Part shown: positions 16,848-48,570 of the stretch, one piece after another
Layout: each line of letters starts with the position of its first letter
Position numbering within the stretch: the stretch's first letter is position 1
NCBI GenBank assembly: GCA_001189165.1
Contig: LFCO01000003.1
Span: 1-48,768, forward strand
DNA from: Parcubacteria bacterium C7867-005
GTDB lineage: Bacteria; Patescibacteriota; Minisyncoccia; Phycocordibacterales; Zambryskibacteraceae
DNA length: 48,768 nucleotides
Reading direction: 5' to 3'
Made by a program: the position numbers and the translations under genes
The notes under the pieces: generated by a model
Databases searched by the model: none
Told to the model about the DNA's origin: nothing
Seen by the model: only the letters and a program-made list of their open reading frames with translations

Positions 16848-16875
16848 TTGATAGTAATATTTTAAAGTGTATTAT
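16848..16875 (+). promoter_or_regulatory. Sigma70-like promoter TTGATA-N16-TATTAT reading into GC-rich cassette 1
   Basis: TTGATA at 16848-16853 and TATTAT at 16870-16875. The -10 coincides with the left copy of the 8-bp direct repeat. Confidence 0.45.
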
Positions 16876-16877
16876 CT
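16870..16877. repeat. Left copy of the 8-bp direct repeat TATTATCT flanking cassette 1
   Basis: An exact 8-mer also occurs at 17916-17923, immediately outside both composition boundaries. Confidence 0.5.
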
Positions 16878-16925
16878 ACTCGGAGTGCCCTTTGTAGCAA
16901 ACCAACGACCAACTGGAGAACCGAG

Positions 16926-17888
16926 ATGACCACGATCATGCAGCGAATCGACCGCACCGCGACGATTCCGATCTCTCACAGGGTGCCAACGCCCCCACCC
17001 CCGCAGTCCGTGAAGATCGAGGTTACTGGAGTGTGTAACCTCAGATGTGGTTTCTGCGCTCTTACCAAGCGCGATACCCAGCCCACGAAACCCATGTCCT
17101 GGGAGTTCCTGGAGAGGATGATCAGGGAGTGTAGGGAGTTCGGAATCAAGGAGATCGGATTCTTCTACATCGGCGAATCCTTCACTGCCATGGACATTCT
17201 TGTCCCCGGAATCAGGCTCGCCACCGAGCTAGGTTTTGAGGGCAGGTTCCTCACCTCGAATGCCACGGTAGCTACCCCAGACAGGGTCCGGCAAGTCATC
17301 GAAGCTGGGTTGACCTCATTGAAGTGGAGCGTCAACAACGATTCTCCGCATCAGTTCGCGGAAGTGACCGCGAGACCCGAGAGACTGTTCCATCTGGCCA
17401 TGGCCAACATCCGGCGGGCCAAGGAGGTCAGGGATGACGTCTTCGGTCGGACCGGCCATCGATGCGAGCTTTCGGCATCAAGGATCCGATACAACGATGA
17501 CCAGCATCTGAGGATGATCGAGTTCTTCAGAACTGAGGTCGAGCCATTCGTCGACCATGCCTACGAACTACCCCCGTACACGATGGGTGGATCCCCTATC
17601 GAGAGGGAGAGGGAGCTCGGAATCAATCCGACCGCAGGGAACCAGGGTCGGATCGGCGGTCTGGTGGCACCAATACCATGCTGGGCGGTTTTCACTGAGG
17701 CGCACATCACCTCATGTGGGATGCTCAGCGCATGTTGTTTCGATGCCAACGGTTCATGGACCATGGCAGACCTGAACGAGGTGTCGCTCGCAGATGGATG
17801 GCATAGCATCGCCTTCCAGAACCTGCGCAACGCACACCTCGAAGGTAACATCCGGGGTACCGCATGCGAGACGTGTGCTCTGTACTGA
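16926..17888 (+). CDS. Radical SAM enzyme with Cys-rich SPASM/twitch-like C-terminal domain
   Basis: ORF track, 320 aa. Has the CxxxCxxC cluster VTGVCNLRCGFCAL and the C-terminal cysteines CWAV...SCGMLSACCF...GTACETC. GGAG lies 7 nt upstream of the ATG. Codons are GC3-rich, unlike the neighbouring genes. Confidence 0.85.
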   Translation: MTTIMQRIDRTATIPISHRVPTPPPPQSVKIEVTGVCNLRCGFCALTKRDTQPTKPMSWEFLERMIRECREFGIKEIGFFYIGESFTAMDILVPGIRLATELGFEGRFLTSNATVATPDRVRQVIEAGLTSLKWSVNNDSPHQFAEVTARPERLFHLAMANIRRAKEVRDDVFGRTGHRCELSASRIRYNDDQHLRMIEFFRTEVEPFVDHAYELPPYTMGGSPIERERELGINPTAGNQGRIGGLVAPIPCWAVFTEAHITSCGMLSACCFDANGSWTMADLNEVSLADGWHSIAFQNLRNAHLEGNIRGTACETCALY

Positions 17889-17892
17889 TTCT

Positions 17893-17913
17893 AAACCGCC
17901 GACATGGCGGTTT
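17893..17913 (+). terminator. Hairpin terminator of cassette 1
   Basis: AAACCGCC-gacat-GGCGGTTT followed by cttatt, starting 5 nt after the TGA. Confidence 0.7.
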
Positions 17914-17915
17914 CT

Positions 17916-17923
17916 TATTATCT
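17916..17923. repeat. Right copy of the 8-bp direct repeat TATTATCT
   Basis: An exact match to 16870-16877. Confidence 0.5.
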
Positions 17924-17927
17924 TTAA

Positions 17928-17942
17928 TATCAAAATTTGATA
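17928..17942. promoter_or_regulatory. 15-nt palindrome TATCAAAaTTTGATA overlapping the promoter of the 17953 gene (possible operator)
   Basis: A perfect 7+7 inverted repeat that abuts or overlaps the TAATAT -10 box. Confidence 0.3.
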
Positions 17943-17946
17943 ATAT
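17941..17946 (+). promoter_or_regulatory. -10 box TAATAT, 6 nt upstream of ATG 17953 (leaderless-type)
   Basis: Plus strand reads TAATAT-aagtct-ATG. Confidence 0.5.
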
Positions 17947-17952
17947 AAGTCT

Positions 17953-18804
17953 ATGAAAAAAGTATTTATACATACGAATAATAAGCAGTTTGCAGGAGCG
18001 ATACTCGCCAAATACGCTATAGAAAGCAAGCTTCCCAAAGATTCTGATATAACTGTCGAGTTTATCAACGTCGATGAGATAGAGGCTTTCAAAAAATTTG
18101 CTGGCAAAGAATACATGTTCGCAGGCAAAACTCGTGTCTATAACCCAAAGGATCTCCAGTCCTTCACTCTCTCCAGGTTCATGCCACCACAACTCATGGG
18201 TTACGAAGGGACTGCTGTAGTGATCGACCCGGATATATTCGCGCTCAAAGACATCTCTCCATTGTTCAACATGGACATGACCAACAAAACACTGGCTGCA
18301 TGTAGCAAAAAAGACACGTGGGATACAAGCACCATGCTCATGGACTGTGAAAAGCTCAAGCATTGGAAAATAGAGGATATCTTAGATGGACTTGCGAACA
18401 AAAAACTTGATTATGTGTTCGACATCATGAGTCTAAAGCATGAACCCAGAGAATCTATCTTAGAACTACCGAGAATATGGAATAACTTGGACAAAATCAC
18501 CCCCGATACTTATATGGTCCACATGACCAATAGGATGACACAGCCATGGAAAACCGGCTTACCCATAGACTTCACCATAAACCCGATGCCAAAAATTTTT
18601 GGCATCATTCCTCGAGAGCCAATACACAAACTCCTCGGCAAGTATCCAACACATTACCAAAAACATCCTGACAAGAATATCGAAGGCTTTTTCTTAAACC
18701 TAGTCAAAGATGCCATCAAAAATGGTGCGATAACCAAAGAGACGATCAGCTCAGAAATAGCCAAGGGTCATGTGAGAAAGGACCTACTGTCTATTATTTC
18801 TTGA
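17953..18804 (+). CDS. Hypothetical protein (possible nucleotide-sugar transferase with a DxD-like VIDPDIF segment)
   Basis: ORF track, 283 aa. AT-rich native codon usage and glycan-locus context. The family assignment is uncertain. Confidence 0.55.
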   Translation: MKKVFIHTNNKQFAGAILAKYAIESKLPKDSDITVEFINVDEIEAFKKFAGKEYMFAGKTRVYNPKDLQSFTLSRFMPPQLMGYEGTAVVIDPDIFALKDISPLFNMDMTNKTLAACSKKDTWDTSTMLMDCEKLKHWKIEDILDGLANKKLDYVFDIMSLKHEPRESILELPRIWNNLDKITPDTYMVHMTNRMTQPWKTGLPIDFTINPMPKIFGIIPREPIHKLLGKYPTHYQKHPDKNIEGFFLNLVKDAIKNGAITKETISSEIAKGHVRKDLLSIIS

Positions 18805-19537
18805 TCTCCACAAAGAAACCGGCGGCAAACATGTTCGGCCAGATAGATTTTAGTATTGGTATCCCAACATAATAGTTTATTGTGTAGTTTTCATAGCCCT
18901 GTGCCTTGATCCACCACAACAAATCTTTCTTTGTCCAGAACCTTATATGTTCTGCTGGATGCTTAGCCCACTGCATAGGAAACTTACCAAAGAAAAATAA
19001 TCTGAATCTGTGTATGAAAAAACCAGTATTAGGGAAAGAGAACAAAACACCTTTTTTGGATTTATCATAAGCAAACCTCAACAACTCCTCAGAACCGGGA
19101 ACGTGTTCAAGTATCTCAAAGAGAATGGTGAAATCCGCTTCATGGATCTTTGAATACTCTTCTGGTTTGTTTATATCAAAAAGTTGTGTTTGTAAGCCCA
19201 TCTTCTTGGCTACTTCCAAAGCATAAACGGAACTGTCATAGGCTGTTGCTCTCTCGAGCTGGGCTTTGTTTTTGATATAAAGAAGTACTTCACCGGCACC
19301 AGATCCAATGTCGTTAACAGATCTACCTCCTGCCCCTACAATGATGTTTGAAGCTATTTCTGCCCGCTTTTCCTGCCACACACCGAGGCCACCCATGTAT
19401 TTCTCTCCTCGTTTTTCCTTCCAATACGCGTCATAGTCAAAATGTGCACCAGGAACAATCCTCTTTTGTGGGTAGACATACATACGCCTGAGCCAATCCC
19501 TGCTCATCCATAAAAAATCTTTGATCTTATTCAACAT
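18794..19537 (-). CDS. Class I SAM-dependent methyltransferase
   Basis: The track ORF starts at TTG 19573. The in-frame ATG 19537 (MLNKIKDF...) is preferred on promoter spacing. SAM motif I is VNDIGSGAGEVLLY. Confidence 0.75.
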   Translation of the reverse strand: MLNKIKDFLWMSRDWLRRMYVYPQKRIVPGAHFDYDAYWKEKRGEKYMGGLGVWQEKRAEIASNIIVGAGGRSVNDIGSGAGEVLLYIKNKAQLERATAYDSSVYALEVAKKMGLQTQLFDINKPEEYSKIHEADFTILFEILEHVPGSEELLRFAYDKSKKGVLFSFPNTGFFIHRFRLFFFGKFPMQWAKHPAEHIRFWTKKDLLWWIKAQGYENYTINYYVGIPILKSIWPNMFAAGFFVEIKK

Positions 19538-19544
19538 ATAGAAG

Positions 19545-19550
19545 AGTGTA
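19545..19550 (-). promoter_or_regulatory. -10 box TACACT, 7 nt upstream of ATG 19537 (leaderless-type)
   Basis: Minus strand reads TACACT-cttctat-ATG. Confidence 0.4.
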
Positions 19551-19587
19551 AGGCATAAGAGACCCCCTTGCAATTTTGGGCAAAAAA

Positions 19588-19593
19588 TATACT
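19588..19593 (+). promoter_or_regulatory. -10 box TATACT, 8 nt upstream of ATG 19602 (leaderless-type)
   Basis: Plus strand reads TATACT-atcgttct-ATG. Confidence 0.45.
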
Positions 19594-19601
19594 ATCGTTC
19601 T

Positions 19602-20894
19602 ATGTCAAAACAGAAAAAGGTGGTTAAAAAAGTAGCCATCGCTGAAAGAACCACCTGCCGAATATCTGGAGAAAAATTCTCCCCTCTCTTTACCTTAGGC
19701 AAGCTATACCTCTCTGATTTTATCGAAAAGCACGAGACTCCACACTACGACCCCATCGAACTAAAGATGTGCCTGGCTCCAAAATCTGGCCTAGTACAAC
19801 TCGCACACACCACCCCTGGGGATGTGATGTATAGAAAGTATTGGTACAAATCTGGTACCAACGCGACCATGACAAACGAGTTGTCGGGTATCGCTCAGAA
19901 AACACAAAGTCTGGTACATTTCAAACCAGGAGACATCTTCGTAGACATCGGATGTAATGACGGAACACTTTTTAGATTCGTAGAGAAGAAATTTATCCGT
20001 ATTGGATTCGATCCGAATAATTTCAAAGAGGAATCGATCAAACATGCAGACATCATAGTCAACAACTATTTTACCTTCAAAGAATACAGCAAAACCAAGC
20101 ATGGTAAAAAGAAAGCCAAGATTATCACTTCTATCGCGATGTTCTACGACCTAGAGAACCCGCACGCTTTCGTCAAAGACGTGAAAAACACCCTAGACAA
20201 AGATGGTCTATGGGTTATCCAGATGAGCTACCTCCCACTCATGCTCAAACAACTCGCTTTCGACAACATCTGCCACGAACACCTCAAGTACTACAGTCTA
20301 AAAACATTGAAGTATCTGCTCGAGAAAAATGGTATGAAAATTGTCGACTGCGAACTCAATGATGTAAACGGCGGAAGTTTCAGAATATACATCAGGCACA
20401 AGGATGCTAATGCTTCGACATTCGCCACTGCTCCTTATAGAGACGTAGCAGATATGCGCGTCGAATCAATCTTGAAATACGAAGAAAGCCTGAGACTCAA
20501 TGATAAAAAGATATACATAGATTTCTGGAAAAAAATACAGGCTCTCAAAAAAGAAACTGTCGACTTCATCAAAAAAGAAAAAAAGAAAGGTAAGGTTATC
20601 TGGGGATACGGGGCTTCGACGAAAGGCAACACCCTGCTCCAATGGTACGGTCTTGATAATACCCTCATAGACGGGATCGCGGAGCGATCCCCAGCTAAAT
20701 TTGGCCTCAAAACAGCTGGTACCAACATCCCTATATACTCTGAAGAAGAGATGCGCAAAGCTAAGCCAGACTACCTTTTGGTCCTACCTTGGCACTTTAT
20801 AAATGAATTCAAGGAAAGAGAAGAGAAATTCCTTGCTGGTGGTGGCAAGCTCATCGTCCCCTGCCCAAAGTTCGAGATCATCGGCAAAAACTAA
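19602..20894 (+). CDS. NDP-hexose C-methyltransferase-type SAM methyltransferase (TylCIII-like three-domain architecture)
   Basis: ORF track, 430 aa. Has an N-terminal Cys region, SAM motif VDIGCNDGTLF, and a C-terminal IWGYGASTKGNTLLQ Rossmann-like domain typical of sugar C-methyltransferases. Confidence 0.7.
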   Translation: MSKQKKVVKKVAIAERTTCRISGEKFSPLFTLGKLYLSDFIEKHETPHYDPIELKMCLAPKSGLVQLAHTTPGDVMYRKYWYKSGTNATMTNELSGIAQKTQSLVHFKPGDIFVDIGCNDGTLFRFVEKKFIRIGFDPNNFKEESIKHADIIVNNYFTFKEYSKTKHGKKKAKIITSIAMFYDLENPHAFVKDVKNTLDKDGLWVIQMSYLPLMLKQLAFDNICHEHLKYYSLKTLKYLLEKNGMKIVDCELNDVNGGSFRIYIRHKDANASTFATAPYRDVADMRVESILKYEESLRLNDKKIYIDFWKKIQALKKETVDFIKKEKKKGKVIWGYGASTKGNTLLQWYGLDNTLIDGIAERSPAKFGLKTAGTNIPIYSEEEMRKAKPDYLLVLPWHFINEFKEREEKFLAGGGKLIVPCPKFEIIGKN

Positions 20895-21910
20895 TTCTCC
20901 ACACTTAGTTCCTCGAGGTTATTTTTGATCATCATCGACACCAGAGATTCAAATGATACTGACGGTTCCCAGCCAAGATCTTGTTTTATCTTACTGATAT
21001 CCCCAACCATTTTAAATGTTTCTTTGGGTGCATAAAAATCTTTATTCACCTTCACTATCACTTTGCCACTGTCATCTACTCCGTATTCATCTATGCCCTC
21101 GCTTTTCCATGAGATGTTCAGACCAAGACACCTTGCACCCTCTTCTACGAACTCCCTCACTGTATGGAGCTTGCCTGTGGCCACTACATAGTCCTTGGGT
21201 TCTTTAGCTTGGAGCATCAGGTGTGCAGCTCGCACAAAATCCCCAGCGAAGCCCCAGTCCCTCTCCATATCCATGTTCCCTAATTCTAGTGGAGTGTCTA
21301 TCAATCCAAGCTTAATCTTGGTCATAGTCTTAGCAATCTTGCCGGTCACAAACCGATCCTCTCTACGTGGTGACTCGTGGTTAAATAAAAATCCAGAGCA
21401 CACAAAGACTCCACGCTTACGTAGTCCAACGACAAAATCGTTGTGTGCATCTATTTTTGTTTCTGCGTACACATTCCTTGGAACAAACTGTGTATCTTCG
21501 TTCTGTGGTGATACGGATGTATCAAACATCTGGGAACTCGATGCTTGGAAAAGCCTGACTTTGGGATTTACTTCGATTGCTTTATTAAAAATAAATCCAA
21601 CTGCATCGTGGTTTATCTTCTTGGTTTCCTCTGGATTTTTGTTCGCCGTACCCAAATCTGATATAGCTGCGAAGTTGTAAATTTCATCAAACACAGTTTG
21701 TTCCAAAACCCTATCGACAAACATCTGGTCCTTTATATCTCCATAATGGATCGTAGTAAGGGACTCGATAGATTCTGCCAATTTACCCTGATGTTTCTCT
21801 CTGCTAATGCCATGAACCTCATACCCAAGACCGAGTAGGTATTCAGCCATATAAGAACCATCTTGGCCAAATATCCCTGTCACCAAGGCTATTTTCTTAG
21901 TGTCCTTCAT
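20891..21910 (-). CDS. GDP-mannose 4,6-dehydratase-family SDR (divergent paralog)
   Basis: ORF track, 339 aa. Has IALVTGIFGQDGSYMAEYLL, the YAETK catalytic pair and NHESPRR. Confidence 0.75.
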   Translation of the reverse strand: MKDTKKIALVTGIFGQDGSYMAEYLLGLGYEVHGISREKHQGKLAESIESLTTIHYGDIKDQMFVDRVLEQTVFDEIYNFAAISDLGTANKNPEETKKINHDAVGFIFNKAIEVNPKVRLFQASSSQMFDTSVSPQNEDTQFVPRNVYAETKIDAHNDFVVGLRKRGVFVCSGFLFNHESPRREDRFVTGKIAKTMTKIKLGLIDTPLELGNMDMERDWGFAGDFVRAAHLMLQAKEPKDYVVATGKLHTVREFVEEGARCLGLNISWKSEGIDEYGVDDSGKVIVKVNKDFYAPKETFKMVGDISKIKQDLGWEPSVSFESLVSMMIKNNLEELSVEN

Positions 21911-22298
21911 AGGATTTCTCCTCTATTATCTCTGACTTGGCGAGGGCGTTTATCTGTTTCTTGATAGCGAACCGCTCATCGTTTTTGGTGTGTATCACTC
22001 TATAATGAACAAAATCATCTTCTGTACAAGTGCTTTTCCTCTCACACTCATGAATCTTATCTGACAAATCCCAAATCTCTTGGTTCACTGCCTTTAGCTT
22101 ATTTAATGTTTCGAGGAGTTCATCAGTCTGAGGTATTGCTTGTGCAAATACTTTCATCAATAGATCCTTTTCTGTATCAACATTTTTCTTTTTTTGCATA
22201 TCTTGAATATGCTCAGATTTTATCTGCAGAACAGTTATCTTGTCGGCTAGTTCGCCGGCTGATACCGGAGCGAGTAAAGTATTCTCCATGATAATCAT
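21897..22298 (-). CDS. Small conserved hypothetical protein (helical; resembles a DUF found in LPS/glycan loci)
   Basis: ORF track, 133 aa. APVSAGELADKITVLQIKSEHI... Sandwiched between the two dehydratase paralogs, and its start abuts the gmd stop. Confidence 0.5.
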   Translation of the reverse strand: MIIMENTLLAPVSAGELADKITVLQIKSEHIQDMQKKKNVDTEKDLLMKVFAQAIPQTDELLETLNKLKAVNQEIWDLSDKIHECERKSTCTEDDFVHYRVIHTKNDERFAIKKQINALAKSEIIEEKSYEGH

Positions 22299-23336
22299 CT
22301 AGTCGTCCTTATGTTCATTTGATCCAACGATAAGTTTAACATCTGCTTCAACCATCATCTTCACTAGGTCTTTGAAGGTGATTTGTGGTTTCCAGCCAAG
22401 TTTGGTTCGAGCTTTCTTTGAATCCCCAAGTAGATTATTCACTTCATTCAAACGATAATATTTCTTATCTAGTTTAACCACCACCCTACCCTTTTCGTCT
22501 TTGGCTACTTCCGAGAGGCCCTTGCCGCTCCATTTGACTGGCATGCCGAGGTATTTTGCGGTCTCGGTCACAAACTCGCGGACGGTATGACTCTCTCCAG
22601 TAGCTATGACGAAGTCTTCTGGTGTCTTTCGTTGGAGCATCATCCACATCGCTCGGACATAGTCACCGGCAAAACCCCAATCTCTCTTAGCATCGAGGTT
22701 ACCCATGGTTACCATATCTTGCAACCCGAATTTTACTTTGACCAATGAGTGGCTAACTTTCCTGGTCACAAAGTGCTTACCGCGTCGAGGAGACTCGTGG
22801 TTAAACAAAACTCCAGAGCAGATGAAGAACCCTTTTTTTCTAAACGGCACCACAACCTTCTCATGGGCGAGGAGTTTGGATTCACCATATGGACTGACTG
22901 GAGCGAACTTGCTCTTCTCACTTTGTGGCGGTTTGGTGTTACCGTACATCTCACTTGTAGAAGCTTGATAGATTTTTACTTTTGGATTCTGCTTGAAGGC
23001 TTCTGTGGCTAGGCGCTCGAGTCCGCGATAATTGATATCCATAGTCTCATCTGGACAAGTGAAAGAGATGCCGACATGGGACTGGGCCGCGAGGTTATAT
23101 ATCTCATCTGGTTTAGATATCTTTAGGGCATTCTTGATCGTCTCCTCGTCCCTCATATTGCCGTAGATGAGCTTTATTTGACCATTGCCATAGAGATCCT
23201 CAATACGAGTAAATGGGTCGGTAGAAACACGACGAAGCAGGCCATATACCCTGTAGCCCTTTTGAACCAGAAATTCTGCTAAATAAGACCCATCCTGACC
23301 AGTAATACCGGTAATTAGAGCTGTTTTTGTCGCCAT
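22299..23336 (-). CDS. gmd: GDP-mannose 4,6-dehydratase
   Basis: The track ORF starts at TTG 23360. ATG 23336 (MATKTALITGITGQDGSYLAEFL) gives the canonical N-terminus. Also has STSEMYG, YGESK and NHESPRRG. Confidence 0.9.
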   Translation of the reverse strand: MATKTALITGITGQDGSYLAEFLVQKGYRVYGLLRRVSTDPFTRIEDLYGNGQIKLIYGNMRDEETIKNALKISKPDEIYNLAAQSHVGISFTCPDETMDINYRGLERLATEAFKQNPKVKIYQASTSEMYGNTKPPQSEKSKFAPVSPYGESKLLAHEKVVVPFRKKGFFICSGVLFNHESPRRGKHFVTRKVSHSLVKVKFGLQDMVTMGNLDAKRDWGFAGDYVRAMWMMLQRKTPEDFVIATGESHTVREFVTETAKYLGMPVKWSGKGLSEVAKDEKGRVVVKLDKKYYRLNEVNNLLGDSKKARTKLGWKPQITFKDLVKMMVEADVKLIVGSNEHKDD

Positions 23337-23340
23337 ATTT

Positions 23341-25556: not shown

Positions 25557-25582
25557 ATTATTTGCTTACTTTAGCACACCCA

Positions 25583-27996: not shown

Positions 27997-28005
27997 GAAT
28001 CGTGG

Positions 28006-28959: not shown

Positions 28960-28963
28960 AAGA

Positions 28964-29368: not shown

Positions 29369-29377
29369 ATTTAAATG

Positions 29378-34137: not shown

Positions 34138-34139
34138 GG

Positions 34140-36367: not shown

Positions 36368-36373
36368 TGAGTC

Positions 36374-36379
36374 ATTATA
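36374..36379 (-). promoter_or_regulatory. -10 box TATAAT, 6 nt upstream of ATG 36367 (start of the long minus-strand glycan operon)
   Basis: Minus strand reads TATAAT-gactca-ATG. Confidence 0.55.
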
Positions 36380-36402
36380 GCTTTATAACGAAGCTTAATA
36401 AA

Positions 36403-36411
36403 TGCTATAAT
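36403..36411 (+). promoter_or_regulatory. Extended -10 TGcTATAAT, 7 nt upstream of ATG 36419 (leaderless-type)
   Basis: Plus strand reads TGCTATAAT-cgccacc-ATG. Confidence 0.6.
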
Positions 36412-36418
36412 CGCCACC

Positions 36419-38494: not shown

Positions 38495-38536
38495 ATAATT
38501 GCAGAAAAGATAAGGCTACTATAGGATGAAACGGCA

Positions 38537-39595: not shown

Positions 39596-40188
39596 GTTAA
39601 AATCTCAGAGACAACGGAGCTTATTTCAGGACTCTCATCGATTGAACTTTCTGCATTATTATGATCAACATATGCAGTAGCAGCAATTTCGCCTACATAA
39701 TCACGATCGACAATGTCACCATCCTGAGCGCTTTGATATTCAGCAATCTCTAAATATTTATTAAAAATTGCTTCAGCATGCTCTGCTAAAATTGGCTGAC
39801 CATCCACAATACCCCTAAATGCAAACACAACATCACTCATGTGGTCATCATTAATATTGTGCTTAATTATTCGTATTTCGTGACCGTCAATTGAACCCTG
39901 AATTAAATCGCCAAAGATAGTGTCCCCACCATTACCTTGTCCGAATCTTAATTTACAGTTTTTTGGATTTAATTCATTTCTTCTATTTTCAGGATCATAA
40001 TATTTTTCTCTAAGATATGACATTAACATCATCCCTCGTTCTTTGTCAGTTGGGATTTGATCATGATCATTTTTTTGCAAGCCCATCATCTCTTTTGCTT
40101 TACCTGTCTCCATCTTTTCGTGGAACCATGATTCGAATGACATAATTTCAGAATTAATCAGTTTAATAAATCTGTCTAAATAATACAC
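39592..40188 (-). CDS. Hypothetical protein
   Basis: ORF track, 198 aa from a GTG. An internal ATG at 40143 (MSFESWFHEK...) is an alternative start. No motif recognised. Confidence 0.5.
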   Translation of the reverse strand: MYYLDRFIKLINSEIMSFESWFHEKMETGKAKEMMGLQKNDHDQIPTDKERGMMLMSYLREKYYDPENRRNELNPKNCKLRFGQGNGGDTIFGDLIQGSIDGHEIRIIKHNINDDHMSDVVFAFRGIVDGQPILAEHAEAIFNKYLEIAEYQSAQDGDIVDRDYVGEIAATAYVDHNNAESSIDESPEISSVVSEILT

Positions 40189-40213
40189 GATAATCTACCC
40201 CTCCCGCAATAAT

Positions 40214-40996
40214 CTATATCAAGATGGGTTTAAGGGCATTTAGGATTTCCTCTGAGTTGACTGCAATTATCTGCTGCTTTTCCTTAGACAGACCACTTAT
40301 TGGTACACCCCCCTTGCCCAAGATCAGCCCTCCAGCCTCGTACAAGAGCCCCACAGCCGCGGCGATGTCTATGGTGGTAAGGGTGCCGTAAATATTGGCC
40401 TCTACCCTGCCTGAAGCCACATAACACATATCAAGCCCCGAGCTCCCCAGATTGGCGCACTTAACCCCATTTTGGAGGAGGAATTTGTATGAGTCTGCTC
40501 CCCAATTCCAAAGATCTTTATTTCTACCCGCACGGAGTAGCATGTAGGACTCACCAAGACTTTTAATGTTTGATATCTTTATTGGTCGACCGTTCAGAAA
40601 AGATCCCTTGCCCTTTTGAAAACTGTAGAGTTCATCAGTGGCTGGATTATAAAGTGCACCAACTACAGGAACTCCTTTCTCAACATAAGCAACTACAACA
40701 GCGTAGTGTGGAATGTGTCGAGAGAAATTGCTCGTACCATCTATCGGGTCAAGAGACCAAAATGATCCTGAAGAAATATCTTCATCAGTAGCCTCTTCTG
40801 AATATATCGCTTCGCCCGCGAATCCCTCTCGTATTCTAGTACTCAAAAATTCACTAATCTCCAAGTCAGCTTTGGTGACGATGTCTAATGGATTACCATC
40901 CTTAAAAGATTTCTCAATATCTGTATGAACATACTCTTGGAGTTTCCATCCAGCTTCCTTGACTAATCCTAATATGAAGTCGTATCTATTTTTCAT
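40214..40996 (-). CDS. Inositol monophosphatase/SuhB/CysQ-family phosphatase
   Basis: The track ORF starts at TTG 41014. ATG 40996 (MKNRYDFILG) is preferred on promoter spacing. Has WSLDPIDGTSNF and GSSGLDMCYVASG motifs. Confidence 0.85.
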   Translation of the reverse strand: MKNRYDFILGLVKEAGWKLQEYVHTDIEKSFKDGNPLDIVTKADLEISEFLSTRIREGFAGEAIYSEEATDEDISSGSFWSLDPIDGTSNFSRHIPHYAVVVAYVEKGVPVVGALYNPATDELYSFQKGKGSFLNGRPIKISNIKSLGESYMLLRAGRNKDLWNWGADSYKFLLQNGVKCANLGSSGLDMCYVASGRVEANIYGTLTTIDIAAAVGLLYEAGGLILGKGGVPISGLSKEKQQIIAVNSEEILNALKPILI

Positions 40997-41002
40997 AAAA
41001 TC

Positions 41003-41011
41003 AATATAGCA
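41003..41011 (-). promoter_or_regulatory. Extended -10 TGcTATATT, 6 nt upstream of ATG 40996 (leaderless-type)
   Basis: Minus strand reads TGCTATATT-gatttt-ATG. Overlaps the left copy of the 9-bp direct repeat. Confidence 0.55.
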
Positions 41012-41013
41012 CA
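41005..41013. repeat. Left copy of the 9-bp direct repeat TATAGCACA flanking cassette 2
   Basis: An exact 9-mer also occurs at 41777-41785. Confidence 0.55.
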
Positions 41014-41021
41014 AACAAATT

Positions 41022-41047
41022 GGGCCCAGTACCGAAGTACTGGGCCC
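41022..41047 (-). terminator. Perfect 11-bp GC-rich hairpin downstream of the cassette-2 gene
   Basis: GGGCCCAGTAC-cgaa-GTACTGGGCCC, starting 27 nt after the stop and followed on the minus strand by aatttgtttg. Confidence 0.65.
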
Positions 41048-41074
41048 TTACTACAATCTCACAGCTTCACTTGA

Positions 41075-41707
41075 TCACCAGAAGATGTTGTCGGCGATCT
41101 CTGTCCCGCCGCTCGTGATACCCTTCTTCGAGCCACCTTCCGTCGTAGCAACCTCCTCCTCCGTCAAGAGGTGCAAGGTCGCATGAAGGCTCATCTTGAA
41201 GAGAACGAGTTGTGGTGCCTCGATGTCGAAGAAGTGGAAGAGACGCCTGGTGGACATGCCTTCCTTCTCGCGGGCCGAGGTACCTCCGCCCGCCTTCTGC
41301 TCGAGTGTCTTCACGAAGCGGAACGTGATCCCGCTCGCTTCCTCGGCGGTGAGGATGGGGCCGAAGCTGAGGATCTTCTCCCGCACGAACTCCTCCATGA
41401 TCTCCCGCGCCGGATCGATCTCGAAGAAGTCTGGATCACGCCGAGAGAAGATCTCGAAGATCGTCTCGAGGTGCGAGTCGTCGACGACGAACCGAGCATC
41501 CATCCCTTCGAAGTCATGCGCCTCGAAATTGTTCTCGAGGTACTCCTTGCCCAACTGCGTGAGCTCGGCTGCGCCACCGAGAGCTCCGATCCTCTTGTGT
41601 CCCTTACGGAATGAAGCCGAGTTGAGGACACCGAAGAACCGAACTGCGCCAGTCTCCTTGACGATGAGACGAGGGGCAAGGTTGCCGATCGAGATGCGAA
41701 TGAGCAC
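41075..41707 (-). CDS. Orphan 210-aa protein of unknown function, high-GC codon usage
   Basis: ORF track, GTG start with GGAGGG 3 nt upstream. GC3-rich codons (ctc, atc, ttc, gag). It is the only frame with a sensible composition; the overlapping ORFs on both strands look like GC-content artefacts. Confidence 0.7.
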   Translation of the reverse strand: MLIRISIGNLAPRLIVKETGAVRFFGVLNSASFRKGHKRIGALGGAAELTQLGKEYLENNFEAHDFEGMDARFVVDDSHLETIFEIFSRRDPDFFEIDPAREIMEEFVREKILSFGPILTAEEASGITFRFVKTLEQKAGGGTSAREKEGMSTRRLFHFFDIEAPQLVLFKMSLHATLHLLTEEEVATTEGGSKKGITSGGTEIADNIFW

Positions 41708-41774
41708 GTACCCTCCGAGAGGTGGTCTGGAAGACCTTGTAAGTGGTTACTGTGATGTTCAACTGCCTAATCCC

Positions 41775-41783
41775 ATTATAGCA
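41775..41783 (-). promoter_or_regulatory. Extended -10 TGcTATAAT at the upstream junction of cassette 2
   Basis: Minus strand reads cattgTGTGCTATAATggg. It overlaps the right copy of the 9-bp repeat and would give a leader of roughly 60 nt to GTG 41707. Confidence 0.55.
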
Positions 41784-41785
41784 CA
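41777..41785. repeat. Right copy of the 9-bp direct repeat TATAGCACA
   Basis: An exact match to 41005-41013. Confidence 0.55.
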
Positions 41786-41807
41786 CAATGTATATGAAAG
41801 TCAATGG

Positions 41808-42962
41808 CTACAAAAGACCATCAAATACAAGGGTTTTGAGGTAGCGGGCGACGAGGTCCCATTCGTACTTTTCTCTTACTAACCTCCGACCATTTTCTAT
41901 AAGGGAATCCCTGAGCTCTTTATTCTTTATTAATCTTTTTACCTGAATAACAATACTTTCTGGATTCTCTGTTTTAACGAAAAGCCCGGTTGGTTTTTTA
42001 TCTTTATTTTTATCAGGATCGAAAACAAAATCGACGATACCACCAACTGGGGTAGCTATAACCGGCAAGCCCGCTGCCATAGCTTCGATGAACGAATTAC
42101 CAAACCCCTCAGAAAGAGACGGGCGGATAAATATGTCTGATGCATGCAAATATAGAGGCACATCTTCATAAGACATGTGGCCCAAAAACATCACACGAGC
42201 TTCAAGATTTAAATTTTTAGTTAACAGTTTTAGACTATTCTCTAGTGGACCAGTACCGATGATTAACAATTTTATATTCCCGGGCAGATCAACCAAAGAT
42301 TGGATGATGTCCTTCACCCCATTCTTCTTGACCAACCTCGAGGTGGTGATCAGATATATATCTCCCTCTTTTTTATCCATACGTTCTAGCAAGCTCTGGA
42401 GCCTCGATGGATCAGATATCCGAGAGAAAACAGCAGTCTCTACCCCATTAGGAATCACCTCTACCCTGCCCTTATAACCCATTGATACAGCAAAGTTTGC
42501 GAGGAATAAAGAAATAGTCTGTATAACATCAGCCTTCAAAAATATCCTCCTGAAAAGTGGGTACACGAACCTCGCCTTTGATTTAATTTCTTCTAAAGGA
42601 ATCCCCTCCTGAAGAGTAAGCACGTAAGGAACTTTAGGGAAAGAGTATTTGAAGAACAAGCTGGCAAATCCCGCATGCGCTGCCATGATGGACCAAATCA
42701 TGTTGTAAGATTTTTCCAGGTGCAGCTTTTTACCAAAGAGATACGCTTTGATAGGAAACAGTATCTTGGGGGTATCAATCCTGTAGACGGTTACATTGTT
42801 TATCTTTTCTACATCTTTGTGCTCCTTAGAGAACTTTTTTGTCACCATATCAAACTCTATATCAGTCATGCGACTGGTCAGTTCCCTGACTGCAACCTCT
42901 GCTCCGCCAACAATAGGTTCGTATGCGAGTGAAAATATGAGTACTCGTTTCATTTTATTCAT
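41808..42962 (-). CDS. GT4-family glycosyltransferase
   Basis: ORF track, 384 aa. PSLSEGFGNSFIEAMAAGLPVI. Confidence 0.8.
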   Translation of the reverse strand: MNKMKRVLIFSLAYEPIVGGAEVAVRELTSRMTDIEFDMVTKKFSKEHKDVEKINNVTVYRIDTPKILFPIKAYLFGKKLHLEKSYNMIWSIMAAHAGFASLFFKYSFPKVPYVLTLQEGIPLEEIKSKARFVYPLFRRIFLKADVIQTISLFLANFAVSMGYKGRVEVIPNGVETAVFSRISDPSRLQSLLERMDKKEGDIYLITTSRLVKKNGVKDIIQSLVDLPGNIKLLIIGTGPLENSLKLLTKNLNLEARVMFLGHMSYEDVPLYLHASDIFIRPSLSEGFGNSFIEAMAAGLPVIATPVGGIVDFVFDPDKNKDKKPTGLFVKTENPESIVIQVKRLIKNKELRDSLIENGRRLVREKYEWDLVARYLKTLVFDGLL

Positions 42963-44640
42963 CTACCCCTAAGAGTGCTTTGAGTTCGGTCTCAGGGATT
43001 TCGTTAGTTTGTTTTTTGGGTTCACTTTTTAATTCAACAGATTTTTCCAGGTTGGGCCTTGGGGCAACGTGCGGTTTATTGGAGACAGGTTCTGACTTGA
43101 TCATGCTCGAGAGGATATTTTTCAAATCTGAAACATGCTTAGGACTAGGGTTTCTCTGATTATTACTTTTTTGTTTCAAACTATCCAAGGAAATAGCTTT
43201 CAGTGGTTTAAAATCATCTGTCGGCTCTTCTCTCTTGATCACCTCTTTCTGAACCTGCCTCTCTTCTTTCTTCTCCACTCTTTCTTCTCTGTACTCAGGT
43301 TTTTTACCACGAAAATCTATAGCTTTTAGAGCTTTTGGATTTGCTCTACCATCTTCTTGCCAGTCTGAAATTTCTTTTTCGATCATCGCCCTTGGACGAG
43401 CAAAAGTTTTCCTTGAATACTCGATGATTTCATCCATTAGAGACGTTTCCTGTTTCTTGATCGGAGGCAAAGTAGTGGCTGAAAAAGGTTGAGAACTAAC
43501 CCCATCTATCATGAGCTTCAAATATACTTGTGCGAATCCGAGATTTACCAAATCCTCTGCAGTAAAGGTTGGGGAAAATTCTTTCTCTAGTATCTCGGCG
43601 TCATAGGCACCGACACGAAAGACAATCATGGTACCGACGTTTCCAAACACCGCGGCCCTAACTTCTTCTGACATCTGCTCTATGTACTGATGAGCGATAG
43701 TGAGGTTTAGTTTATATTTACGGGCTTCAGAGAGAATATCTGCAAAAGATTCGTTGGCAAAAGATTGAAATTCGTCTACGTATAGATAGAAGTTTGGAAG
43801 CTTTTGTAGATTAGCCTCTGATTTGTCTGCACGACTCATGGCTGCCAAATAAATCTTGGTGATGAGCATCGAACCGAGCAGGTTTGCATTCGCTTCACCC
43901 ACACGACCCTTGGACAGGTTTATGATGAGGATCTTGCCTTCATCCATGATCTCTCGGATATCAAAGCTCGACTTCGACTGTCCTATGATATTTCGAATCA
44001 AAGGATTAGAAGTGAACTGACCAATCTTGTTTTGTATGGCTGGGATAGCTTCTGCAGCAAATCTTTCTGTATATCCGGCGAACTCTTGCGTCCAGTAAGT
44101 TTTCACAGATGAATCAGTGACGTTGGCCACGACCTTATCTCTATACACCTTATCTACAAGCATTTTGTTGATGCCGAGCATCGTAGCACCTGGATATTCA
44201 AGTAAAGCGAGGATCGTGTTCTGCAAGATGTACTGCATACGGTCAGAAAAGCTCTCTTCTCCAAAAAGTTTCTTGAAGGCGCTCATTAGCCCGTTAGCCA
44301 CGAGGTGGCGTTTATCAGGGCCAACATCTTCCATCACATTAAAGGATATCGGATGTTCTATATCAAATGGCGCAAAATAAACCACATCTTGCTTCCTATG
44401 CTCTGGTACATATTCAAGCAGCAAATCAGCCGTTTTGCCGTGTGGGTCAACAAAAGCTATGCCCTCACCACTCTGGATGTCTTGCACTGCCATATTCTCA
44501 AGCAGGGTCGACTTACCCATGCCTGTTTTCCCTATAACATAAACATGTTTTAACCTGTCTTTGGATTTGATACCAAAAGCCACGCGCTTGTTGCGAGAAT
44601 CAGTTTCAGCAAAGTACGTGATCTTGTCCGGATCGATCAT
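42955..44640 (-). CDS. Type IV secretion coupling-protein-like (TraD/VirD4/DUF87-type) P-loop ATPase without an N-terminal TM anchor, with a K/E-rich C-terminal tail
   Basis: ORF track, 561 aa. Walker A is IGKTGMGKST, then FVDPHGKTAD, Walker B FYLYVDEFQSF and LTIAHQYIEQM. The last ~130 aa are low-complexity and charged. Confidence 0.7.
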   Translation of the reverse strand: MIDPDKITYFAETDSRNKRVAFGIKSKDRLKHVYVIGKTGMGKSTLLENMAVQDIQSGEGIAFVDPHGKTADLLLEYVPEHRKQDVVYFAPFDIEHPISFNVMEDVGPDKRHLVANGLMSAFKKLFGEESFSDRMQYILQNTILALLEYPGATMLGINKMLVDKVYRDKVVANVTDSSVKTYWTQEFAGYTERFAAEAIPAIQNKIGQFTSNPLIRNIIGQSKSSFDIREIMDEGKILIINLSKGRVGEANANLLGSMLITKIYLAAMSRADKSEANLQKLPNFYLYVDEFQSFANESFADILSEARKYKLNLTIAHQYIEQMSEEVRAAVFGNVGTMIVFRVGAYDAEILEKEFSPTFTAEDLVNLGFAQVYLKLMIDGVSSQPFSATTLPPIKKQETSLMDEIIEYSRKTFARPRAMIEKEISDWQEDGRANPKALKAIDFRGKKPEYREERVEKKEERQVQKEVIKREEPTDDFKPLKAISLDSLKQKSNNQRNPSPKHVSDLKNILSSMIKSEPVSNKPHVAPRPNLEKSVELKSEPKKQTNEIPETELKALLGVDE

Positions 44641-44647
44641 TTTCTAC

Positions 44648-44653
44648 AGTATA
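44648..44653 (-). promoter_or_regulatory. -10 box TATACT, 7 nt upstream of ATG 44640 (leaderless-type)
   Basis: Minus strand reads TATACT-gtagaaa-ATG. Confidence 0.5.
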
Positions 44654-44671
44654 CAACAAATATTATTTAGT

Positions 44672-44701
44672 TTGACAGAATGAACCCCTCACAAGTAACA
44701 T
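44672..44701 (+). promoter_or_regulatory. Sigma70-type promoter TTGACA-N18-TAACAT for the cassette-3 gene
   Basis: A perfect -35 hexamer at 44672-44677 and TAACAT at 44696-44701. The GAGAGGA SD-like tract ends 6 nt before ATG 44735. Confidence 0.5.
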
Positions 44702-44734
44702 GCAATAAGACCACCTGAACCAGAGAGGATCACG

Positions 44735-45034
44735 ATGCTACACACAGAAAGAAGGCCCGGCCACAACGAGTGGCTTGGCCTGAAGGGGGCACTCCAGAGC
44801 TGTGGTGCCACTGTCGAACTCGAGATGTTAAAGATCATCGAACTCGACGGGCATATCTCCACCTGTCGTCATCCGCACATCCGGCGGGAGCATGTCCTGA
44901 ATGCCAACCGGTTGTTCGAGGAACTCCATCACGGTTGGCGTATCCTGGATGAGCGTGGCCAACCGTGGCCGACTGAGGAAGATGAGCTCTACATCTTTCC
45001 CACGAATCACCCGCGGACATCCACGACCGCCTGA
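44735..45034 (+). CDS. Orphan 99-aa protein of unknown function, high-GC codon usage
   Basis: ORF track. Preceded by an SD-like GAGAGGA and followed at once by a hairpin terminator. The antisense ORFs in the same segment look like GC artefacts. Confidence 0.55.
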   Translation: MLHTERRPGHNEWLGLKGALQSCGATVELEMLKIIELDGHISTCRHPHIRREHVLNANRLFEELHHGWRILDERGQPWPTEEDELYIFPTNHPRTSTTA

Positions 45035-45052
45035 CCCCCCTCATCGGGGGTC
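45033..45052 (+). terminator. Hairpin terminator of cassette 3
   Basis: GACCCCC-ctcatc-GGGGGTC followed by ttcttaatt. It overlaps the TGA stop codon. Confidence 0.65.
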
Positions 45053-45055
45053 TTC

Positions 45056-46237
45056 TTAATTATCTGCTTCAGATAATTCTGGTGTCTCTGGGAATAGGGC
45101 GGACACCGTGTATTTATTACCAGCATTCCACAAGATCCATGAGGTTAGCCCCAGATCATAAGTAGCTTGTATTTGTGCACGAACTTCATCTGGCCCATAG
45201 TTCGCCCCCATATTAAAATCCTGAAGCCAGGGGCGTAGTTTGGACGGCGTAGAGCTCGCAGCTACTGCCTTATCTATTCCTCCCTGCATGGATAGCTTGA
45301 TGATGTCATATGGATGTGATGCCGGATTTTTATAACCATTCCAATTCGACGGATAATGAGATGGGTAAACCATCGGCGAAACATAGTCAAAATATGGCAA
45401 AGTTTTCTCGAGCACCTGTCCAATACCTAGATCATCCTTATTCGTAGTCGTCATGCCGAACAAATCAGCAGAAGTGACAATACCCGTCCCATAAAGCTCT
45501 TCATGGAGATAAGAAAAGAAGCTTTCAAGCATCTCCGGTTTTGTAGAAGTTCCCACGTTCCAGCTATAAACGGTATCCTTCATGTTTCCATCCGAAGGGT
45601 ATCGGATATAATCGTAATTAAGTTCATCAAACCCCAGTTCGTACGACACCTTTGAAAGATTTACCACGTATTCCCAATAAGGTTTCGCGCCAACATCTAT
45701 AAACGAGAGCCCCTTATAGTCTCTCCACACACCGCCCGTCGACTTGGATCTGACCGCGAGCTCAGGATGGAGCTTTGTATAATATGGATCTTGGAAAACT
45801 GTGATCCTCCCTATCACATAAATATTATTCTTATGTAACTCTTCTATATATTCTTTTAAATCAGATACTCGACAACCAGGAGCACCAGGTGCTTGGATAT
45901 CTGGATCAATAAAAGAAATCGTCCCCGAATAATCTTTGATATCTATAACAATAGAGTTAAGTTCTGTTTTGTTAACAAGCTCCATGAGCGACTTCCTCCA
46001 AGAGGGGGTGCCCGCGACACATGCGGTCATATAAATAGCCTTAACAGCTTCTGGTGTTTTGACGTGAATCGTTTCTGGCTTTTTTAATAAATCTGAATCT
46101 GTTTTATAAACAGTACTTAAGGAATCGTAGTTTGATTTTGTAACCAAAGGTAGAACTATGGCCACAAAGCATAAAAGAAAAAGGAAACCAAGAAATATTT
46201 TGCCGAAAGATTTTGGTTTTTTATCAACCGGCATCAA
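45056..46237 (-). CDS. Membrane-anchored putative glycoside hydrolase (TIM-barrel, DUF4015-like)
   Basis: ORF track, 393 aa with an N-terminal TM. AIYMTACVAGTPSWRKSLMELVNKTELNSIVIDIKDYSG and GRITVFQDPYY resemble the putative glycosyl-hydrolase family I know as DUF4015. Confidence 0.55.
   Translation of the reverse strand: MMPVDKKPKSFGKIFLGFLFLLCFVAIVLPLVTKSNYDSLSTVYKTDSDLLKKPETIHVKTPEAVKAIYMTACVAGTPSWRKSLMELVNKTELNSIVIDIKDYSGTISFIDPDIQAPGAPGCRVSDLKEYIEELHKNNIYVIGRITVFQDPYYTKLHPELAVRSKSTGGVWRDYKGLSFIDVGAKPYWEYVVNLSKVSYELGFDELNYDYIRYPSDGNMKDTVYSWNVGTSTKPEMLESFFSYLHEELYGTGIVTSADLFGMTTTNKDDLGIGQVLEKTLPYFDYVSPMVYPSHYPSNWNGYKNPASHPYDIIKLSMQGGIDKAVAASSTPSKLRPWLQDFNMGANYGPDEVRAQIQATYDLGLTSWILWNAGNKYTVSALFPETPELSEADN

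Positions 46238-47052: not shown

Positions 47053-48570
<1,518 letters not shown>

Follow-up and report, generated by a model that had tools for sequence, protein, structure and literature searches.

GC-Rich, Free-Standing Genes with Shine-Dalgarno-like Leaders in a Parcubacterium Whose 16S rRNA Lacks the Anti-Shine-Dalgarno Sequence

The Three Genes and Their Predicted Transcription Units

Three genes of high GC content, designated here as A, B, and C, are found in a 48,768-nt stretch of DNA from Parcubacteria bacterium C7867-005 (contig LFCO01000003.1). The whole of this stretch was analyzed and is called the window (W); loci fetched from other genomes are given L-numbers. The window has a GC content of 41.6%, and it carries a bacterial 16S rRNA gene (47053–48570, minus strand) and a gene for tRNA-Ile. 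The best matches of its proteins are found in metagenome-assembled genomes (MAGs) labeled as Patescibacteria, Paceibacterota, or Parcubacteria. Gene A (16926–17888, plus strand) encodes a protein of 320 amino acids and has a GC content of 0.575, with a value of 0.710 at the third codon positions (GC3). Gene B (41075–41707, minus strand) encodes 210 amino acids, with GC and GC3 values of 0.588 and 0.787, respectively, and gene C (44735–45034, plus strand) encodes 99 amino acids, with values of 0.577 and 0.680. All three are strong outliers relative to the 38 resident genes of the window, for which GC is 0.406 ± 0.023 and GC3 is 0.405 ± 0.051 with a maximum of 0.515. The 16S rRNA gene is the only other segment of the window with a GC content above 0.5.

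An earlier note on this DNA had described the three genes as foreign cassettes whose codon usage is alike among themselves and unlike that of the host. The statement about codon usage was confirmed. The relative synonymous codon usage (RSCU) of the three genes is correlated (r of 0.45–0.53) and is anticorrelated with that of the host (r of −0.14 to −0.36), and GC3 is 0.68–0.79 versus 0.405. The codons ATC, TTC, AAC, TAC, and AAG are favored in the GC-rich genes and GGT is kept; the codons for Gly, Cys, His, and Asp remain host-like. The atypical composition and codon usage by which a genomic island is recognized are found in all three genes. The note had also considered that the islands might vanish on reassembly. 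This region was recovered in two independent assemblies, JGI 3300001199 and Logan SRR5324951, both of which stop near the ends of the window, and the islands are therefore not an assembly chimera.

For each gene, a sigma-70-like promoter match, a leader with a Shine-Dalgarno (SD)-like motif, and a terminator-like hairpin were predicted, which agrees with the earlier description of three single genes having a promoter, an SD-like site, and a hairpin. The promoter-like site of A (16848–16875, plus strand) is TTGATA-16-TATTAT, which fits 10 of the 12 consensus positions within a region with a GC content of 0.31. The predicted 5′ leader (16883–16925, plus strand; GC of 0.53) contains the SD-like motif GGAG at 16915–16918, and its pairing with the canonical anti-SD sequence is predicted to be worth −6.4 kcal/mol. 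The transcript would end at a hairpin with a 9-bp stem followed by a T-rich tail (17893–17913, plus strand). For gene B, the promoter-like site (41775–41804, minus strand) is TTGACT-18-TATAAT with a TG element, fits 11 of 12 consensus positions, and has a layout that is repeated in the orthologues. Its predicted leader (41708–41767, minus strand; −10.0 kcal/mol) carries GGAGGG at 41711–41716, preceded by ACCACCTC, which is able to pair with GGAGGG. The terminator-like hairpin of B (41022–41047, minus strand) has an 11-bp stem and a TTCG loop. Gene C is preceded by TTGACA-18-TAACAT (44672–44701, plus strand; 10 of 12 positions) and by a predicted leader (44709–44734, plus strand; −10.0 kcal/mol) with GAGAGGA at 44723–44729, and it is followed by a 7-bp G+C-rich stem and TCTTCTT (45033–45052, plus strand). 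The SD-like motifs of the three genes lie 5–8 nt upstream of the start codons. In each case the extent of the GC-rich stretch is the extent of the predicted transcript: GC is 0.30–0.33 in the promoters, 0.52–0.58 in the 5′ untranslated regions, and about 0.15 in the DNA past the terminator.

The leaders of B (41720–41728, minus strand) and C (44708–44716, plus strand) have AGACCACCT in common, and the leader of A (16907–16914, plus strand) has GACCAACT. The copy in B may form a hairpin with the SD-like GGAGGG. As a signature of the three genes, the motif (GACCACCT) was rejected, with eight exact 8-mer copies being found in the window and none in the orthologous leaders.

The statement that the islands have no recombinase, inverted terminal repeats, or attC-like site was borne out by a repeat search and a scan of the neighboring genes. 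No direct or inverted repeats were found to bracket any of the three islands. No recombinase was found among the scanned neighbors, which are genes of glycan pathways, and the only inverted repeat downstream of each gene is its terminator hairpin, leaving no candidate for an attC site. Each gene has its own promoter-like site and no integrase was seen, unlike the cassettes of an integron. There is no tRNA gene next to the islands that could have served as an integration target, since the sole tRNA gene of the window is the one for tRNA-Ile beside the rRNA. The proposal of an integration route aimed at −10 boxes or transcription start sites is unsupported for A and B. The only flanking repeat, a 12-nt repeat around B (41002–41013 and 41774–41785), is the resident extended −10 consensus TGTGCTATAaT occurring at two promoters.

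A structured noncoding RNA was likewise considered and rejected. Searches of Rfam with the whole window at the gathering threshold, and with island C in E-value mode, gave nothing relevant. RNAalifold applied to six orthologues of A returned a covariation term of +1.43, which offers no support for a conserved structure. Genes A and B are under purifying selection, with nonsynonymous divergence (pN) of 0.11 and 0.21, respectively, versus synonymous divergence (pS) of 0.73 and 0.67.

Relatives, Neighborhoods, and Age of the Genes

The protein encoded by gene A matches PF04055 (E = 4e-11; 43.7 bits against a cutoff of 29.5) and PF13186 (E = 4e-8; 34 bits against 21.5). The three cysteines of the CX3CX2C motif (C37, C41, and C44) are invariant, as are the C-terminal cysteines C252, C270, C271, C314, and C317. 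By its sequence, A is a radical S-adenosylmethionine (SAM) enzyme with a SPASM/twitch C-terminal domain. The nearest solved relatives in a profile search of the PDB are viperin-like enzymes, BtrN, MoaA, and PqqE; these matches are weak (E of about 1e-8) and cover the N-terminal half only. A resembles the small-molecule radical SAM enzymes more closely than the peptide maturases.

A scan of GTDB returned 412 relatives of A, most of which come from Burkholderiales and other betaproteobacterial groups and are about 50% identical. The best non-self match among 5.8 billion proteins is 83% identical and is found in AT-rich Patescibacteria. In Patescibacteria, A is always accompanied by genes for a protein of about 490 amino acids, a GT8-like transferase, and a methyltransferase, and usually also by genes for an SIS/CBS isomerase and a C-methyltransferase. 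Every partner gene has the resident composition, and the module is conserved in W, L001/L008, L006/L010, L011, and L007. Judged from these neighborhoods, Patescibacterial A is part of a conserved module for sugar (glycan) modification. No homologue of B or C that could be the partner gene in a cluster for ribosomally synthesized and post-translationally modified peptides was found beside A in 86 loci, and the conserved partners of A are sugar-pathway genes. Among the non-Patescibacterial loci that carry A (L012–L087), the recurrent neighbors in Betaproteobacteria are subunits of the cbb3 oxidase (FixO and FixP), FixG, Crp/Fnr regulators, and Usp, and genes for a nitronate-monooxygenase-like protein and a carbonic anhydrase also occur there. 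These neighbors suggest that A functions at low oxygen in a role that has nothing to do with glycans.

A second radical SAM gene is present in the glycan locus of L001 (13795–15012; 405 amino acids; GC of 0.516). It is SD-led (TTGGAGGTGGT) and also has a deficit of A/T runs (z of −2.7 in the shuffling test described below). A gene for a short-chain dehydrogenase/reductase lies nearby at L001 13027–13707.

Gene B belongs to a family with 332 cluster representatives at E ≤ 1e-3. The protein itself scores 21.6 bits against PF18167 (Sa_NUDIX), which is under the cutoff of 25; its relatives score 31–40 bits, and several of these are over the threshold. An AlphaFold2 model of B has a predicted local distance difference test (pLDDT) value of 91, and the top Foldseek matches of the model are all Nudix hydrolases, at weak values (E of at least 0.03; template-modeling score of about 0.3). 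The core RE-x2-EE is present as REIMEE at 101–106 in the window protein, with R101, E102, and E106 invariant, and the spacing upstream of it deviates from the Nudix box GX5EX7REUXEEXGU. From the model and the alignments, B appears to be a divergent, Sa_NUDIX-like protein of the Nudix fold. Its best non-self match among the same 5.8 billion proteins is 68% identical and also comes from AT-rich Patescibacteria. A tblastn search of phage records with B found nothing.

The gene order GT4, B, an inositol-monophosphatase-family gene, a gene of about 350 amino acids, and an epimerase is kept in seven loci: W, L004, the P0124 contig, L091, L092, L093, and L096. A metagenome scan with the B alignment gave three loci only, two of which are identical in sequence. 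No SMODS/CD-NTase cyclase or other partner of the type found in cyclic-oligonucleotide-based antiphage signaling systems (CBASS) lies beside B, and the PADLOC matches in this neighborhood of GT4, inositol-phosphatase, and (in L004) LigT-like genes are marginal effector matches only. The LigT/2H-phosphoesterase-like gene of L004 (7239–7880; GC of 0.335) is inserted between GT4 and B, and the pairing of a Nudix protein with a 2H phosphoesterase hints at the processing of nucleotides or cyclic nucleotides. A B-like gene with 43% identity occurs in another context in L097 (1485–2126), on a contig with a GC content of 0.54. This gene has neither a GC offset nor an SD-like motif, and it may represent the compositional home background of the family.

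For C, the only match among the 5.8 billion proteins is to itself. No relatives were found in phage records (tblastn) or in a scan of viral contigs, and Pfam, NCBIfam, and PADLOC gave no match. The single-sequence AlphaFold2 model of C has a pLDDT value of 71 and has no Foldseek match. C occupies a slot between the genes for a DUF4015 protein and a TrwB-like ATPase (W 44641–45055, L004 3789–4340, and L091 1125–1463). The occupants of this slot in W, L004, and L091 are mutually unrelated open reading frames of 99, 183, and 112 amino acids, respectively, all of which lie on the opposite strand, are GC-elevated, and are SD-led. The slot resembles a hot spot of new or orphan genes, and C would be a young or fast-evolving, lineage-specific orphan within it. 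The ATPase gene beside B and C (42955–44640, minus strand; 561 amino acids) matches TrwB/VirD4-type coupling proteins in Pfam and HerA/mad8 defense models in PADLOC, and in relatives, too, it stands after DUF4015 and before GT4.

The earlier note had raised the possibility that the three genes are the scattered parts of one donor-encoded system, consisting of a radical SAM/SPASM maturase, a 99-residue substrate, and a 210-residue accessory protein. Radical SAM/SPASM enzymes often mature peptides, and in this genome the three genes have their architecture and codon usage in common. Against this, the surroundings of A contained no homologue of B or C in any of 86 loci, which come from many phyla and include 76 non-Patescibacterial loci with flanks of up to 6 kb, and a radical SAM gene was never among the conserved partners of B in the syntenic loci examined. 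The partners of B are GT4, inositol-phosphatase, and epimerase genes, C has no homologue, A and B are 23 kb apart in the window, and the solved relatives nearest to A (BtrN, viperin, and MoaA) act on small molecules. A split system is thus extremely improbable. The three genes are mutually unrelated, are each predicted to be transcribed singly, and are not parts of one system.

The same note had alternatively proposed independent captures from a high-GC organism. In its recent form, this explanation holds that the genes were inserted downstream of resident promoters and that their GC content, SD-like sites, and terminators are relics of the donor. The composition is indeed foreign-like, and each GC-rich stretch corresponds to one transcript with an SD-like site and a terminator. 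GC-rich Betaproteobacteria are the native home of the wider A family, and there the GC content of the gene equals that of its flanks (the difference is about 0, ranging from −0.08 to +0.03, in 27 non-Patescibacterial loci). C has no relatives and sits in a variable slot, and the B-like gene of L097 (host GC of 0.54) lacks both the offset and the SD-like motif.

Recent capture does not account for the distribution of A and B, however. Their neighborhoods are conserved in 6–7 diverged lineages, with neither the patchy presence nor the differing insertion sites of mobile genes, and C alone is lineage-specific. The GC content of A exceeds that of its flanks by 0.075 to 0.17 in every Patescibacterial locus (host GC of 0.35–0.50), and that of B by 0.09 to 0.18 in all seven syntenic loci (host GC of 0.33–0.52). 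Protein identities among the Patescibacterial lineages are 53–83% for A and 46–68% for B, which is similar to the values for the neighboring genes. Between lineages, the synonymous sites have reached or nearly reached saturation: pS is 0.67–0.87, the excess identity at 4-fold sites is r = −0.09 to 0.20, equal to that of resident neighbors, and the mean r at 2-fold sites is 0.09 for A and 0.16 for B. Hardly any trace of an ancestral composition can therefore be left, and the excess is nonetheless found in each lineage. For the branch that ends in the window, a parsimony count at the third positions of A, with the usual caveats of such counts, gives 37 changes from A/T to G/C versus 18 in the opposite direction.

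No near-identical donor sequence was found; the best non-self matches of 83% and 68% for A and B are both in AT-rich Patescibacteria, and C has none. The codon usage is not donor-like, with a dependence of GC3 on context that is absent from the betaproteobacterial homologues, and neither repeats nor an integrase nor a tRNA target is present. Since A and B hold conserved positions in diverged lineages and are GC-elevated in all of them, recent capture is unsupported for these two genes, and we regard the explanation as a whole as quite unlikely. A and B are old, syntenic residents, and among the three genes only C could be a recent capture. The foreign look that had been noticed is real with respect to composition and to the home of the wider A family in GC-rich bacteria.

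Context Dependence of GC3 and the Association with SD-like Leaders

The GC excess is not evenly distributed over the codons of these genes. When codons were grouped as those with A or T at both of the first two positions (WWN), mixed codons, and those with G or C at both (SSN), GC3 was determined to be 0.89, 0.71, and 0.53, respectively, for gene A of the window and 0.96, 0.79, and 0.59 for gene B. The corresponding values are 0.37, 0.40, and 0.37 for the resident genes and 0.83, 0.83, and 0.87 for the betaproteobacterial homologues of A. The same own-codon gradient is present in the A genes of L001 and L011 and in the B genes of L004 and L091; it is weaker in A of L006 and absent from B of L093. 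Residents of GC-richer Patescibacteria have a flat or reversed own-codon trend. The following codon also matters. With eight GC-rich genes pooled, GC3 rises from 0.43 where the codon and its successor are both G/C-rich to 0.90 where both are A/T-rich, and in mixed codons it rises from 0.46 to 0.80 by the next codon alone (n = 258 and 246; z of about 8 by two-proportion arithmetic).

Runs of at least six A/T bases are absent from A, B, and C and occur at 18 per kb in the resident genes. The summed squared run length was compared with that of shuffled sequences in which the protein and the codon usage were preserved. Ten genes from AT-rich lineages have z values of −1.2 to −4.25. For 16 resident genes the value is 0.05 ± 1.1, and it is close to 0 for the betaproteobacterial homologues and the residents of GC-richer Patescibacteria. 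TA dinucleotides number 178 versus 275 in the shuffles (z of −10), and the depleted trimers are those containing TA. At codon junctions, the ratio of observed to expected T|A is 0.44 for the GC-rich genes, 0.46 for the betaproteobacterial homologues, and 0.80 for the residents. The mRNAs are also predicted to fold more stably than synonymous shuffles, by 2.4–3.9 standard deviations for the Patescibacterial A orthologues and 0.1–3.1 for the B orthologues; residents score −0.33 ± 0.89, and betaproteobacterial homologues score −0.3 and −1.2.

This pattern of GC3, A/T runs, and TpA is not predicted by donor relics, by uniform biased conversion, or by plain selection for codon–anticodon pairing. 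Nucleotide-level selection against tracts that are rich in A/T and contain TpA does predict it.

GC-biased gene conversion deserves separate comment. In this explanation, A and B would be recombination hot spots that are exchanged among Patescibacteria, with biased repair keeping the GC content high, and recombining bacterial genes reportedly tend toward higher GC3. The tree of A is incongruent with those of its neighbors. A of the window is closest to A of L001 (83%), whereas the GT8-like and 490-residue neighbors are closer between W and L006 or between W and L011, and this disagreement indicates that gene-level exchange among Patescibacteria has occurred. Biased conversion should raise GC evenly, however, rather than to a GC3 of 0.9 in A/T contexts and 0.43 in G/C contexts. 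It also makes no prediction about limits at the transcript ends or a tie to SD-like leaders, and the offsets of +0.15 to +0.37 in GC3 far exceed reported effects. We give this explanation little credence.

A further possibility is that the GC-rich genes are nothing other than those with the highest expression and that translational or mRNA-level selection, through C-ending WWY codons, fewer UpA, and strong initiation signals, makes the pattern. The promoters of A, B, and C are near consensus. The favored codons listed above, with the retention of GGT, recall the "intermediate pairing strength" rule, which is a rule for optimal codons, and the avoidance of UpA together with stable folding would suit long-lived mRNAs. 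Codon–anticodon selection does not predict, however, that GC3 also tracks the next codon. It is unlikely that genes for a radical SAM enzyme, a Nudix protein, or orphans would rank among the top-expressed ones, and an SD motif cannot boost initiation on ribosomes that lack the anti-SD sequence. The genes for IF3, L35, and L20 in L005 have no GC3 excess, but this lineage is GC-richer. High expression is an unlikely explanation, although it merits more weight than any other alternative considered here.

The 3′ tail of the resident 16S rRNA (47045–47066, minus strand) reads GGAGTAATTCAATTTGAAACAC after helix 45 and does not contain the CCUCC anti-SD sequence. This 22-nt tail is identical in W and L004. 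Past the tail, both have a hairpin of differing sequence and the same shape, followed by a common TGATCGAGTCGATATTAT (whole region, W 47010–47066, minus strand, and L004 919–975). Tsurumaki et al. (2022; PMC9297842) describe anti-SD loss for about half of the Parcubacteria, a large subgroup.

Few SD motifs are found in the resident genes. At least nine resident genes that stand first in their operons have a TATAAT-like box (at least 5 of 6 matches) that ends 6–8 nt before the start codon, including those with starts at 3178, 16788, 19602, 36367, 36419, 40996, 44640, and 46482. A box at this distance implies leaderless mRNAs. Many of the internal resident genes overlap the upstream gene by 4–20 nt, and leaderless and overlapping genes fit with a 16S rRNA that has no anti-SD sequence. 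The TTG start at 41014 that was called mechanically for the inositol-monophosphatase-family gene is probably wrong; the alternative ATG at 40996 (minus strand) lies 6 nt past the extended −10 box TGTGCTATATT, which would give a leaderless message, and the layout is the same in L004 (8620–8654).

The GC-rich genes are organized differently. All orthologues of A and B are predicted to have their own promoter, leader, SD-like motif, and terminator, and the SD-like motifs are often extended (AGGAGGT, CAGGAGGTGG, and AAGGAGGTG). The same layout is seen in other GC-elevated genes, namely, the second radical SAM gene of L001 and small open reading frames of L004 and L091. The association was examined with 105 genes from six loci, of which 12 had a GC3 excess, defined as at least 0.12 above the locus median. 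The mean pairing energy with the canonical anti-SD sequence was determined to be −9.85 kcal/mol for these 12 genes and −2.94 kcal/mol for the 93 others (Mann–Whitney p = 6e-7). Pairing of −6 or lower was found for 11 of the 12 genes and for 12 of the 93 others, and a control region farther upstream of the same genes gave −2.1 kcal/mol. The earlier note had pointed to a conflict between the SD-like sites and a resident 16S rRNA without an anti-SD sequence. This clash is real, and it extends to the relatives.

One way out of the clash would be that the genes are suited to conditions of translation and silencing that differ from the resident ones, either through a second set of ribosomes that bear the anti-SD sequence or through expression in a GC-rich host after transfer, in the manner of T-DNA. 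Canonical SD motifs (AGGAGGT and GGAGGTGG) are kept where the 16S rRNA has no CCUCC, the codon use and scarcity of A/T tracts are maintained in a way unlike the residents, and B and C flank the gene for the TrwB/VirD4-like ATPase. On the other hand, the promoters fit the resident extended −10 consensus, and A works in a module whose partner genes have the resident composition. There is no evidence of transfer, and the ATPase also matches HerA/defense models. This explanation is very improbable.

The Proposed Expression Class and Its Likeness to Known Systems

On statistical grounds, the GC richness of these genes appears to be actively maintained rather than leftover donor composition. We slightly favor a reading in which A, B, and C are accessory genes, old and unrelated to one another, and make up an expression class that selection maintains. 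A, and probably B, would have entered the lineage long ago and would have been inherited since then together with their neighborhoods. A would have come from GC-rich bacteria, the home of its wider family, and would then have been recruited into the glycan module. For these leadered, free-standing genes, the probable target of selection is the transcript or the DNA. The putative traits of the class are an individual promoter, a leader of 26–60 nt that contains a canonical SD-like motif, an mRNA that is both GC-rich and over-structured, and a terminator hairpin. The rest of these genomes would depend on leaderless or coupled translation with a 16S rRNA that has no anti-SD sequence.

Several points weigh against this reading. 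The candidates for the selective agent are A/U-preferring RNases, spurious promoters or start sites, and silencing proteins, and they are candidates only. The partial incongruence between the tree of A and those of its neighbors may mean that A has been replaced by GC-rich alleles from unsampled lineages. The betaproteobacterial homologues avoid T|A at codon junctions about as strongly and thus share part of the context signal, and this tempers plain A/T-run avoidance as the whole story; only the GC-rich genes show the own-codon effect on GC3 and the A/T-run deficit. In GC-richer lineages (A of L005 and B of L092), the effects are weak or not seen, and the A/T-run deficit is weak for C alone (z of −1.2). 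The promoters, leaders, transcript ends, and terminators are consensus predictions only. The sample is one window and about ten short loci, with ribosomal-protein genes from the GC-richer L005 lineage, and the class may simply be "highly expressed genes".

It is possible, though we propose it only tentatively, that the anti-SD-less Parcubacteria keep a second class of genes that are monocistronic, leadered, preceded by a canonical SD motif, GC-rich, and purged of A/T tracts, especially those containing TpA. The members of this class would vary by lineage and would include radical SAM enzymes, a Nudix protein, and orphans. If this is true, the class would mark another mode of expression or of mRNA survival: a separate initiation pathway, messages that withstand RNases during stress or dormancy, or, at the furthest, expression on foreign ribosomes inside a host cell.

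Atypical GC content is routinely taken as a sign of recent horizontal transfer, and A and B are old syntenic residents instead. With a GC excess that outlasts near-saturation of synonymous sites and is patterned by context, transfer calls based on composition would in these genomes be wrong with respect to both age and cause. The combination of GC richness, SD-like leaders, and free-standing units bears on how anti-SD-less bacteria of the candidate phyla radiation recognize or protect leadered messages. The GC3 offset, the SD pairing energy, and the A/T-run z score can be used together as a screen for further members of the class in any MAG.

The two proteins with recognizable relatives are each partly like a known system. 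Like BtrN, viperin, and MoaA, to which it gives profile matches, A has the CX3CX2C motif and a C-terminal, Cys-rich auxiliary-cluster domain, and it sits among sugar-nucleotide genes. It differs from these in that its profile matches are weak and cover only the N-terminal half, and in that its betaproteobacterial family lies beside genes of low-oxygen respiration. B is similar to Sa_NUDIX (PF18167), the SMODS-associated family of nucleotide-signaling conflict systems, in its family match (under the cutoff for B itself), its Nudix-like model (with weak fold matches), and its RE-x2-EE core. The setting is different, with B standing free in a glycan locus rather than next to a SMODS cyclase or other CBASS-type partner.

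Horizontally acquired islets are known by their atypical GC content and codon usage, and they undergo amelioration (Lawrence and Ochman 1997, as cited in PMC12455944). Like such islets, A, B, and C are compositional outliers with sharp GC steps, and the family of A is native to GC-rich bacteria. They are unlike them in that there is no mobility machinery, in that A and B are syntenic and have remained GC-rich past near-saturation, and in that the excess depends on context.

With respect to translation, two comparisons can be made. In Bacteroidetes, translation is SD-independent and few genes keep an SD sequence (Jha et al. 2021, PMC7797042; Baez et al. 2019, PMC6847099). The situation found here is similar, since most genes have no SD motif and a small minority keeps one. 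The anti-SD sequence of Bacteroidetes is present but sequestered, whereas here it is absent, and the few genes that bear an SD motif here are also GC-rich and monocistronic and have few A/T tracts. W and L004 are like the anti-SD-less Parcubacteria of PMC9297842 in having a 16S rRNA without CCUCC and few resident SD motifs. The part of that paper at hand describes the loss from the rRNA and no class of genes that keeps the SD motif, whereas the GC-rich genes characterized here are strongly SD-led. The atypical genes described here appear to be maintained rather than ameliorating, and they are tied to SD-like leaders in anti-SD-less Parcubacteria.

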